The translations under genes were made by a program, and so were the position numbers. From a virus (lineage: Duplodnaviria > Heunggongvirae > Uroviricota > Caudoviricetes): a stretch of 50,710 nt of DNA. Within the stretch, counting starts at the first letter, position 1, and the number at the start of each line of letters is the position of its first letter. Location of the stretch: the IMG/VR virus record IMGVR_UViG_2877285697_000009. One strand, given 5' to 3'. This document shows, in pieces, positions 30,330 to 33,557 of the stretch. Below the pieces are notes generated by a model. It was given only the letters and a program-made list of their open reading frames with translations. It was not told where the DNA came from and did no database searches.

Positions 30330-30582
30330 TCATGCCGCGGCATCCGCGTTGTTCACTTCCACCTTCACACTGTCAATCAGCAGCGTATATGTCGCCGCCT
30401 TTGATATGCCTGTCAGTTGCAGTTTGTCCGCCGCCCCTGATGCCGGAGATTTTACCAGTGTGAACGGCGTCCCCCGTTTCTCATCCAGTACCGGCGTCAC
30501 CTGAATGCTGTTGTTTCCGGCAAACTCAAAAGCCAGTGTGTGCCATCCGTTATCAAAGACCCCGAACGTATCCAGCTTCGCA
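30330..30582 (-). pseudogene. nanS: nanS-p 3' fragment (C-terminal about 83 codons), separated from the main body by IS600
   Basis: Reading frame from the IS boundary: AKLDTFGVFDNGWHTLAFEFAGNNSIQVTPVLDEKRGTPFTLVK...VEVNNADAAA; joins in frame to ...MYHKKPN upstream of the IS when the IS and one TSD copy are removed. Confidence 0.75.
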
Positions 30583-30624
30583 TGAGGTGTACTGGCAATA
30601 GCGGACACTACCATTTGTTCTTTT

Positions 30625-31443
30625 TTAAGCAGCCATCTGATGATATTTTTCCCTGAAGGCTGCCGGGGAGATATTCCCCAGACGAGAGTGACGACGCTGA
30701 CGATTGTAGAAAATCTCAATGTATTCCCGTATTACTGAGATGGCTTCATCCCGGTTATTAAAACGATAGTGGCTCAGGCTCTCATTTTTCAGCGTTCCCC
30801 AGAAGCTTTCCATCGGAGCGTTGTCGTAACAGTTACCTTTACGCGACATTGATGTTTTCAGACCAAACTGCTCCTGTATGACCCGGTAATCGTATGCGCA
30901 GTACTGTGAACCTCGATCAGAGTGGTGGATTAGCCCGGCAGGTGGGCGCTGGCTCCTGAGCGCCATAAACAGGGCTTTACCTGTCAGCTCTTTTGTCATG
31001 CGCTCTCCCATGGCGTAGCCGACAATTTCGCACGTATAAACATCTTTGATGCCAGCGAGGTACAACCATCCCTCCTGTGTGGCAACATACGTCAGGTCCG
31101 CCACCCAGACCTGATTTGGTGCTGTAGGAGCGAACGTCTGGTTCAGCAGATTTGGCGCAACTGGCAGATTGTGGTTCGGGTTCGTAGTCGCTCTGAACTT
31201 GCGTTTCTGCTTACAGCGTAGCCTTAGCTCCTTACGAAGACGTGCCAGTCGGTCACGACCAACGATGATGCCATTCTCTGCCAGCTCCGTCTGGAGCCGC
31301 CGGGTTCCATATGTTTCGCGAGTGCGGATATGTGCCACCTTAATCTCCAGTTTTAGCCGCTCATCACTTTGTTTTCTGTCTGAGGGTTCATGCTGTACCC
31401 AGTTGTAATAACCGCTCCTGGATACACCAAATACCTGACACAT
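30625..31443 (-). CDS. IS3-family transposase OrfB (DDE integrase core), expressed via -1 frameshift from OrfA
   Basis: 272-aa ORF with DDE region (...WVADLTYV...HHSDRGSQY...YDNAPMESFWGTLK...). Confidence 0.85.
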   Translation of the reverse strand: MCQVFGVSRSGYYNWVQHEPSDRKQSDERLKLEIKVAHIRTRETYGTRRLQTELAENGIIVGRDRLARLRKELRLRCKQKRKFRATTNPNHNLPVAPNLLNQTFAPTAPNQVWVADLTYVATQEGWLYLAGIKDVYTCEIVGYAMGERMTKELTGKALFMALRSQRPPAGLIHHSDRGSQYCAYDYRVIQEQFGLKTSMSRKGNCYDNAPMESFWGTLKNESLSHYRFNNRDEAISVIREYIEIFYNRQRRHSRLGNISPAAFREKYHQMAA

Positions 31444-31478
31444 CGCTTCAATGGGAAATTGTTGTCGCCATTGTTCGA

Positions 31479-31781
31479 TTAACGCGTATTTTTCAGCGAC
31501 TCCTGTGCAAAATACGCTGTTGCTTTTTTTAATATATCTCGCTCAAGGCGAGCTTCATTTAACGCCTTACGCAGTTGCAGAATTTCAGATTCCAGTTCAG
31601 CCACCGTGCGGGAACCAGGAGTACCGAGCCCTTTTCTGGCGGCGGTAACCCATTGTCCTAAAGTGCCTTCAGGAAGGGATAATCGGGAAGCGCCTTCACT
31701 GATCGAAAGTTGATTTTCAAGAACCGTTCTGACAGCTTCGGCTTTGAACTCTTTAGAGTAACGTTGGGTTTTTCTGCTCAT
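31479..31781 (-). CDS. IS3-family transposase OrfA (HTH)
   Basis: 100 aa MSRKTQRYSKEFKAEAVRTVLENQLSISEGASRLSLPEGTLGQWV... Confidence 0.85.
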   Translation of the reverse strand: MSRKTQRYSKEFKAEAVRTVLENQLSISEGASRLSLPEGTLGQWVTAARKGLGTPGSRTVAELESEILQLRKALNEARLERDILKKATAYFAQESLKNTR

Positions 31782-31845
31782 TATTAGCTCCTTCTGATGC
31801 CATTCTATTTCAGGAAGGAGTGTCCGTTAAACTCAGGCTACCTCA

Positions 31846-33557
31846 GCATTCGGCTTCTTGTGGTACATCGCGTTCAGGTTCGTCGCATCCGTCTGCAGGA
31901 AGAAGGACATCAGCATGTCGTTGCCTTCCTCTGCCAGCGTCACTCCCTCCGGCAGGGACGACAACTGCCAGTAAATGCCCAGGGCAAACCGATTCGGCAC
32001 CAGTGAACCCGGCAACTTAAACCGTACGCTCACACGTCCCCCCTTCTTCAGTAACTCCACTCCCTGTCCGGCTGCATCATGCTCCAGAAACCAGATGTGG
32101 TTTTCCGGTTTATTCAGTTGCAGGGCCTTACCTCCCGTAGCCCCCGCATCACTGACCACCGCTTCAGCAATGTTTTTGTTAACATTGTCTCCGCTCGCCG
32201 GTTTGTGATAATAGCGCCAGCCCTGTGATGCCAGGTCTTCGCCGGACGCCAGCAGACTCATCAGGGTTCGGTTACTGACCGGGGCTTCCGGCTCTCTCTC
32301 CGTACCTTCACCGGAAGGTCCGGTGGGCTTCACCGTATCAGGCTGTTTTCCGGTAATGAATTCAGCGGTTCTCCCGGCATGCACAAGAATCGCCGTTGCC
32401 AGACGGTCGGAAATAATCCCACGACGTGCCCATGATCCAAAATGCGTTTTACGGTCGGCCGTCGTCCAGGTTTTGGCGTCCGTTCGACCACCGGCTCCGT
32501 AATACCCAATATCCGCAACATCCGGATCTTCTGACGGCTCGTTGGTACCCACATTTCGCCCGTTTTCATCCGTCATAAACGGCACAAAGAAGATTTTTTT
32601 TGCGGATTTCGTCTTGTATGCACCATACACCGCATCGTATTGCGAAGAATAAGTCTGCTTCCAGTAGTAGGTCGTGTCGCCACAAATCCAGGGAACCGAT
32701 GACGGAGAGCCCCCGAGACACTGACCTCCGAATTCCGACAGGTCAGAACGATATTTTTCCACCATGGAATCAAACAGCCCCGGCTGAGTGGCGTATGCAC
32801 CCTGTTTCAAATCAAACTCGCCCTGCATCCAGACCACTGCAAGCAGAATATTTTTAGGGTTAGCCTTCAGTGCGGCCTGAGTACGGGTAAGCAGGTCCTT
32901 GTACAGTGGCTTATCTACACCCCAGCGTGCCGAGGTCTCGCTTGCGCCGGTGGATTCGCTGAAGGTACCTTCATCGCCCGCCAAAAATGCAGAACCACCA
33001 CGGCAGCACGGAACCAGAAGAATACCGGCATTCGCCGGAATAAACGGCAACAATTTCTTCGCGATATGTAATCCCTGCCCCACGCATCCATACTGAGCTG
33101 CGCTGGCTTTCGGGTGTGAAAACTTACTCAAATCCTGAACATCATGCAGGCAGTGGTCCGCAGGAATAATGTCATTGTAGTTACAGGACGCACCACCCGG
33201 CGTGACAGTGCTGCGACGCGCCAGCTGTTTAATACGCGGGTCCGGACGGTCATATGTCTCCGGCAGCGGAAGCCCTTCACCATACGCCATACCGTTTGAC
33301 TGTCCGGCCAGGGCAACAACAAAGTAATACTCCGGGTTGCTGGTGGTGCTGATAACTGCGCCTTCTCCATCCGACGGCTTCACCACCACAGGTGTGGTGA
33401 CATCACCTTCCGCCGCAATGGCCTGCATCAGGGTATAAGGCGTGATGGCCACCGGACTGCCAAATGGCTGCCACCCCTCCTTCAGTTTTTGTGTCAGTCG
33501 CTCCGCAAGGTCTGACGGCGACGCCGCCCTGACCACGTCATAGTGTTTAAATGCCAT
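31846..33557 (-). pseudogene. nanS: Prophage sialate O-acetylesterase NanS-p (5' 570 codons; interrupted by IS600)
   Basis: 574-aa ORF with SGNH-esterase-like middle; the last 4 codons and the stop (AEVA-TGA) come from the IS600 terminal repeat. Confidence 0.8.

Follow-up and report, generated by a model that had tools for sequence, protein, structure and literature searches.

An IS600 insertion interrupts the nanS-p esterase gene of a lambda-like prophage in a Shigella-labelled genome

Introduction

The chromosomal 9-O-acetyl-N-acetylneuraminate esterase NanS (YjhS; PDB 3PT5) lacks both the DUF1737 domain and the C-terminal jelly roll that accompany the catalytic domain in phage-borne NanS-p proteins such as vb_24B_21/gp84 of the Stx phage phi24B (PDB 6YP6). 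Here, we describe a nanS-p gene that is interrupted by the insertion sequence (IS) IS600 within a 50,710-nucleotide (nt) stretch of viral DNA (Caudoviricetes; IMG/VR record IMGVR_UViG_2877285697_000009), hereafter termed the window. We interpret the locus, with a probability of roughly 85%, as a recent IS600 insertion that disrupted nanS-p and that counts as one step by which IS are eroding a defective lambda-like prophage of a Shigella genome.

The C-terminal region of NanS-p has been crystallized and is described in two reports as a putative carbohydrate-binding module (6YP6), for which a role in carbohydrate targeting has been proposed (PMC10462455, PMC8065619). In phi24B NanS-p, residues Y510, Y515, Y540, and F611 have been proposed to bind sugar (PMC10462455), and gp84 of this phage undergoes an autoproteolysis that removes its C-terminal domain (preprint 10.64898/2026.04.10.717836). 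Stx2a phages also have shorter variants of NanS-p, with 461 and 634 amino acids (aa), and an IS-modified nanS-p allele of O157 Stx2a phages, 'CTR3', carries an element of the IS629/IS1203 type that changes the length of the product from 645 to 634 aa (Pascal et al. 2023, PMC10462455). IS600 itself belongs to a set of five IS that have undergone expansion in every Shigella species, and in these species IS are a driver of pseudogene formation (PMC7373316).

Results and Discussion

Insertion Site and Repaired Gene

An open reading frame (ORF) of 574 aa begins with an ATG at position 33557 on the minus strand of the window and ends with ...MYHKKPNAEVA and a stop codon at 31833; the nanS-p gene to which it belongs is interrupted at codon 570/571 by a 1263-base-pair (bp) element of the IS3 family (30583-31845, minus strand). 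The element is co-directional with nanS-p, has TG...CA ends (TGAGGT...ACCTCA) within imperfect terminal inverted repeats, and is flanked on both sides by a 3-bp direct duplication, GCA. A previous reading of the window, made from the sequence only (the sequence-only reading), had located this ORF and named IS600 as the interrupting element, and both points hold, the identity of the element being borne out by its ends, the duplication, and near-identity to annotated IS600. The features of the interrupted gene are as follows.

31846..33557, minus strand: 5' part of nanS-p, comprising native codons 1-570 plus two bases (GC) of the next; codon 571 is completed by the base with which IS600 begins (31845)
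33408-33551, minus strand: DUF1737 of the 5' part
32385-33341, minus strand: SGNH/SASA catalytic domain, residues 73-391, with the Ser87 codon at 33297-33299 and the His372 codon at 32442-32444
[quoted passage not shown]
31833..31845, minus strand: opening 13 nt of the left terminal repeat of IS600 (TGAGGTAGCCTGA), supplying the last base of Ala571, then Glu-Val-Ala and a TGA stop
31846..31848: copy 1 of the target-site duplication, GCA on the plus strand
30580..30582: copy 2 of the target-site duplication, GCA on the plus strand
30330..30579, minus strand: orphan 3' fragment of nanS-p, running from the final base of codon 571 through codons 572-653 to the stop, and encoding the last five jelly-roll β-strands
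30330..30614, minus strand: ORF of 94 aa (MVVSAIASTPH...), opened by an ATG within the right end of IS600 and continuing in frame into the 3' fragment

The interrupted product comprises native residues 1-571 followed by EVA, with translation ending at the TGA at nt 11-13 of IS600, in the terminal repeat that had been named as the source of the stop codon. The left end of IS600 carries stops in all three frames within 13 nt (TGA at nt 1, TAG at nt 6, and TGA at nt 11), such that any ORF entering the element would terminate at once. The proposal that the terminal AEVA and stop were wholly IS-encoded applies to E-V-A and the stop; Ala571 is native, its codon consisting of GC from the target and T from IS600. 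Likewise, a C-terminal truncation at this site was correctly recognized, although the missing residues (572-653) number 82 rather than about 83.

Deletion in silico of IS600 and one copy of GCA joined ...KKPN to AKLDTFG... and yielded an in-frame ORF of 1962 nt that encodes exactly 653 aa, in agreement with the length that had been anticipated. The repaired protein is 100% identical to WP_000874454.1, a multispecies protein sequence annotated as 'SASA family carbohydrate esterase' and encoded in a lambda-like prophage of E. coli O104:H4 2009EL-2071 (NC_018661.1, 2165389-2167350). The repaired gene and the O104:H4 allele differ by three synonymous substitutions in 1962 nt, one of them in the 3' fragment. 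The O104:H4 copy is uninterrupted and occupies the same neighbourhood (three transfer RNA (tRNA) genes, the esterase, DUF1378, DUF826, holin, and lysozyme). An O104:H4 strain is reported to have five NanS-p esterases, each of which is active (PMC8065619). Both ORFs in the window tile a single PHROG profile, phrog_143 (634 positions), with the 574-aa ORF covering positions 1-549 and the orphan 3' ORF covering positions 549-633. Alignment of the repaired protein with full-length homologues, as the sequence-only reading had suggested, showed that the best 120 are 635-658 aa in length and that all contain DUF1737, SASA, and DUF6645.

The ATG of the 94-aa ORF sits 11 nt past the orfB stop of IS600, and gene callers report this ORF as a separate 'DUF6645' protein. 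No obvious Shine-Dalgarno sequence is visible for it, and judged from its sequence the 94-aa ORF is probably not expressed.

Structure of the IS600 Copy

The interrupting element has the orfA/orfB organization, A7G site, TG...CA ends, and 3-bp target duplication of IS600, and it matches the transposase profile NF033516 transpos_IS3 (E = 8e-100). Its internal features, all on the minus strand, are the following.

31479-31781: IS600 orfA, 100 aa, with a helix-turn-helix domain (HTH_Tnp_1)
30625-31443: IS600 orfB, 272 aa, with a DDE/rve domain (rve + HTH_21)
31523-31530 (IS nt 316-323): A7G slippery/frameshift site
31802-31830: site resembling the element's own promoter

When compared to an annotated IS600 copy, 1263 of 1264 positions were identical, the one difference being a run of six A residues at 30621-30626 where reference copies have seven (1263 versus 1264 bp in length). 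The missing A lies in non-coding sequence just past the orfB stop, and may reflect either genuine mutation or an error in sequencing a homopolymer; that it fuses or breaks the transposase frames was ruled out by its position. The element is annotated as IS600 in thousands of E. coli records, and a near-full-length IS600 was identified in 1,750 records of complete E. coli genomes. Two unrelated IS600 copies are likewise flanked by 3-bp duplications (AAC and GGT), indicating that GCA is a normal IS600 target duplication. IS600 matches in other genomes ran 13-17 nt into the nanS-p flank and seemed to share the target site, but this extension of the alignment was rejected as chance similarity only.

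Position of the Cut in the C-Terminal Domain

Pfam domains identified on the repaired protein were DUF1737 (PF08410; residues 3-50, E = 7.5e-16), SASA (83-274), and DUF6645 (503-616). NanS (3PT5) aligned to residues 73-391 (E = 1e-118) and the C-terminal domain of phi24B gp84 (6YP6) aligned to residues 464-648 (E = 1e-61). The repaired protein and gp84 share one arrangement of three domains. The AGQSN motif (Ser87) and the R-x-x-H motif (His372, the block-V histidine) are aligned and invariant in homologues, as in a NanS-like catalytic domain. The repaired protein was modeled with AlphaFold2 (AF2); a first model based on 16 close homologues had a mean predicted local distance difference test (pLDDT) score of 40, was unusable, and was replaced by a model to which divergent relatives from an exhaustive search were added (mean pLDDT 85). 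Foldseek searches with the latter model recovered 3PT5 with a template modeling (TM) score of 0.95 and 6YP6 with a TM score of 0.87, the C-terminal domain of phi24B gp84 being 51% identical to that of the present allele. The more distant Foldseek matches were lectin-type jelly rolls, for example the sialic-acid-binding domain of V. cholerae sialidase (2W68), and VIP36 and the Hc domains of clostridial toxins were also among the matches.

In the AF2 model, disordered linkers at about residues 52-72 and 398-428 separate the domains, and the C-terminal domain (about 429-648, approximately 220 residues) is a lectin-like jelly roll with 15 strands, a two-sheet β-sandwich of the ConA-like fold. The N-terminal DUF1737, the two disordered linkers, and the SGNH catalytic domain in its entirety are all retained in the interrupted product. 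A complete C-terminal jelly roll (DUF6645/6YP6) is present in the reconstructed gene only, since IS600 splits it: the cut after residue 571 keeps 10 of the 15 strands and removes five (571-578, 583-590, 597-602, 623-627, and 637-646). The sequence-only reading had described the lost part as a possible carbohydrate-binding domain. The C-terminal region is indeed a putative module of this kind (6YP6), but the lost piece is only part of the domain spanning approximately 429-648, and rather than cleanly losing a module the product carries a broken half-domain that ends after strand 10.

The conservation of the domain agrees with this view. Both halves are present in all 22 of the aligned relatives that bear the C-terminal domain, and in the 19 divergent ones among them identity is similar before (34%) and after (37.5%) the cut. 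Half of the 18 best-conserved positions fall after the cut (G577, N581, W583, H584, T599, D603, L612, T627, and Y635). Among relatives whose match covers the C-terminal region, none ends naturally near residue 570. The co-occurrence of both halves and their equal conservation indicate that the 82 missing residues belong to a single domain, of which they form an integral third, and do not constitute a separate module.

Three of the four aromatic residues proposed to bind sugar in phi24B map to positions before the cut (Y510 to F524, Y515 to Y529, and Y540 to F553). The fourth, F611, has no counterpart here and falls in a one-residue gap at about residue 619. Based on these differences, the present variant of the C-terminal domain may bind differently from phi24B NanS-p.

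The locus resembles the 'CTR3' allele of O157 Stx2a phages in that nanS-p of a lambdoid prophage has an IS3-family element in its C-terminal region and the ORF ends in IS sequence. It differs in the identity of the element (IS600 rather than IS629/IS1203), in the prophage, which is a non-Stx, lambda-like prophage of a Shigella-labelled genome, and in the depth of the cut, which leaves 571 of 653 residues and falls in mid-domain, versus 634 of 645 residues and a cut at the extreme C-terminus in 'CTR3'.

Consequences for the Esterase

IS600 inserted at codon 570/571 with duplication of 3 bp, and translation of nanS-p now runs into the left end of the element and stops at the TGA. The catalytic core is left whole and the jelly roll broken, with a predicted loss of carbohydrate targeting. 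An incomplete β-sandwich exposes its core, and such proteins usually aggregate or are degraded. Judged from the model, the remaining half of the sandwich, with a third of its strands gone, should not fold; as a result, the putative carbohydrate-binding or targeting function should be lost, and lower solubility or a susceptibility to proteolysis probably results from the exposed remnant. If the catalytic core survives, it could by analogy still work, since the core is all that NanS has and since the C-terminal domain of phi24B gp84 is lost naturally. Taken together, we consider it somewhat more probable than not that physiologically useful function has been lost, while the persistence of a weakened, untargeted esterase is a real, if lesser, possibility.

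Several observations weigh against a disrupted gene. The catalytic domain has been left untouched, with Ser87 and His372 in place. Catalytic domains also occur on their own, in NanS and in NanS-like proteins of 312-327 aa, and these, together with the autoproteolysis of phi24B gp84 and the 461- and 634-aa variants of Stx2a phages introduced above, are precedents for a core that can act alone. Moreover, the inactivity or instability of the truncated protein is a prediction from sequence and model, and nanS-p shows no decay since the insertion, which fits a recent event but is no proof of neutrality.

Some of these observations underlie the alternative favored by the sequence-only reading, in which the truncated product is a working esterase that is changed in activity or targeting because only a carbohydrate-binding appendage was hit. 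The complete SGNH domain (73-391), the disordered linker of approximately 30 residues that precedes the C-terminal domain, and the retention of three of the four proposed sugar-binding aromatics are all consistent with this alternative. However, the cut lies inside the β-sandwich and not at the linker, five of 15 strands are gone, conservation is as high in the lost half as in the retained one, and the expected fate of an incomplete sandwich argues for aggregation or degradation. We therefore regard a working, altered esterase as unlikely, although whether activity is altered rather than abolished is not decidable from sequence, with the intact catalytic domain speaking for the former and the unfoldable remnant against it.

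Prophage Context

The window shares synteny with the lambda-like prophage of O104:H4. Its gene order is Q, a methylase, three tRNAs, nanS-p, DUF1378, DUF826, holin, lysozyme, and Rz, which places nanS-p in the late region, and Q, holin, lysozyme, and Rz seem intact. The terminase large-subunit gene carries two lesions that the sequence-only reading had missed. The first is an insertion between the ATPase and nuclease domains.

21817-24515: IS66-family (ISCro1-like) element in the terminase large-subunit gene
23785-24462: TnpA of the IS66-family element
23438-23785: TnpB of the IS66-family element
21871-23418: TnpC of the IS66-family element

This element is 98.9% identical to ISCro1-family copies and is bounded by an 8-bp duplication (21809-21816 and 24516-24523). 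The second lesion, at 21265/21266, is the loss of 1 nt when compared with the terminase gene of O104:H4 (nt 1397), which causes a frameshift that splits the nuclease domain into ORFs at 21195-21764 and 20734-21207. With these two lesions, the prophage is unable to package DNA.

Because IS600 is co-directional within a Q-antiterminated late operon, has no predicted terminator before orfA, and has an orfA with its own ribosome-binding site, induction could drive read-through into the transposase and thereby couple IS600 transposition to SOS or late expression; alternatively, the 574-aa product could persist as an untargeted free esterase. We give little credence to either of these effects.

Still less probable is that the insertion was selected, whether by dampening Q-dependent late transcription into the holin-lysozyme-spanin cassette that lies immediately downstream or by shedding mucin foraging that an invasive pathogen does not need. 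The location of IS600 between the Q/late-terminator region and the lysis genes, and the convergent IS-mediated gene loss known from Shigella (PMC7373316), are compatible with selection. However, no terminator-like site was predicted within IS600 on the nanS-p strand, which suggests that strong polarity on the lysis genes is unlikely, and Q-modified polymerase reads through terminators, as is established in lambdoid biology. The lysis genes seem intact, a single lineage was found to carry the insertion, without any sign of convergence, and the other lesions, those in terL, resemble random decay. Thus, we find no sign that the insertion was selected, and disruption of nanS-p in the course of IS-driven decay of the prophage remains the preferred explanation.

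The three tRNA genes (anticodons CAT, TCG, and TCT) lie upstream of nanS-p at 33558-34310, and after them come several hairpins on the minus strand that resemble terminators. ARAGORN assigns the CAT tRNA to Met, whereas RefSeq assigns the homologous O104:H4 gene to Ile. In Stx phages, the stx genes occupy the tRNA/terminator region upstream of nanS-p; no stx was identified in the window at 33558-34310. A mosaic difference between the two prophages was also apparent: the window encodes a 349-aa N6/N4 DNA methylase between Q and the tRNAs (34360-35958), whereas the corresponding site of the O104:H4 prophage (L006 12919-15311) holds two unrelated genes on the opposite strand, one encoding a hypothetical protein and the other a nucleoid-associated protein. 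Finally, in the podovirus phi24B, DUF1737 serves to decorate a T=9 capsid (preprint 10.64898/2026.04.10.717836), whereas the present prophage is lambda-like and has its own gpD-type decoration protein.

Authenticity and Distribution of the Junction

The exact 574-aa product is encoded in a complete chromosome, CP026827.1 (4.56 Mb), whose assembly is labelled Shigella dysenteriae and clusters with S. boydii (PMC10501659). The identical junction was found in two independent sets of short-read runs, ERR5984648 (with five more samples) and ERR5984642, in which contigs end inside the IS600 terminal repeat and are all exact substrings of the window. The junction is therefore not an artefact. IS600 is multicopy and repeats can produce misjoins, but the idea that misassembly or a chimera created the junction and that the gene is truly intact is effectively refuted by the perfect 3-bp target duplication, by the presence of both gene halves tiling one profile, and by recovery of the same junction from a complete genome and from two independent run sets whose contigs stop in the IS repeat as expected.

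The junction was absent from 5,426 complete E. coli genomes, and neither these genomes nor 50,697 phage records contained a sequence that spans both of its sides. The empty site, at a coverage of at least 80%, was found in 371 of the 5,426 genomes, and contigs encoding the intact protein outnumbered those encoding the truncated protein by 484 to 2. A search of species-representative genomes with a 42-nt junction pattern returned 0 matches, which is uninformative since the host genome is not among such representatives. The nanS-p allele is without a close copy in sequenced phages, the best match having 76% identity over 72% of the gene.

Conclusion

No new mechanism is needed to explain this locus, as IS-disrupted nanS-p alleles are already known from O157 Stx2a phages (PMC10462455). 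It adds an example that involves IS600, a deeper cut, and a non-Stx prophage of a Shigella-labelled genome. The significance of the finding beyond annotation is small: the locus is better annotated as a nanS-p pseudogene (nanS-p::IS600) than as a 574-aa esterase and a 94-aa 'DUF6645 protein'. The junction nonetheless provides a clean marker of the Shigella lineage that carries it, and the broken terminase makes any virion-associated role of NanS-p moot in the present prophage. The truncated allele and its intact O104:H4 twin, which has the same amino acid sequence, constitute a natural experiment on the contribution of the jelly roll to the stability and activity of the esterase.

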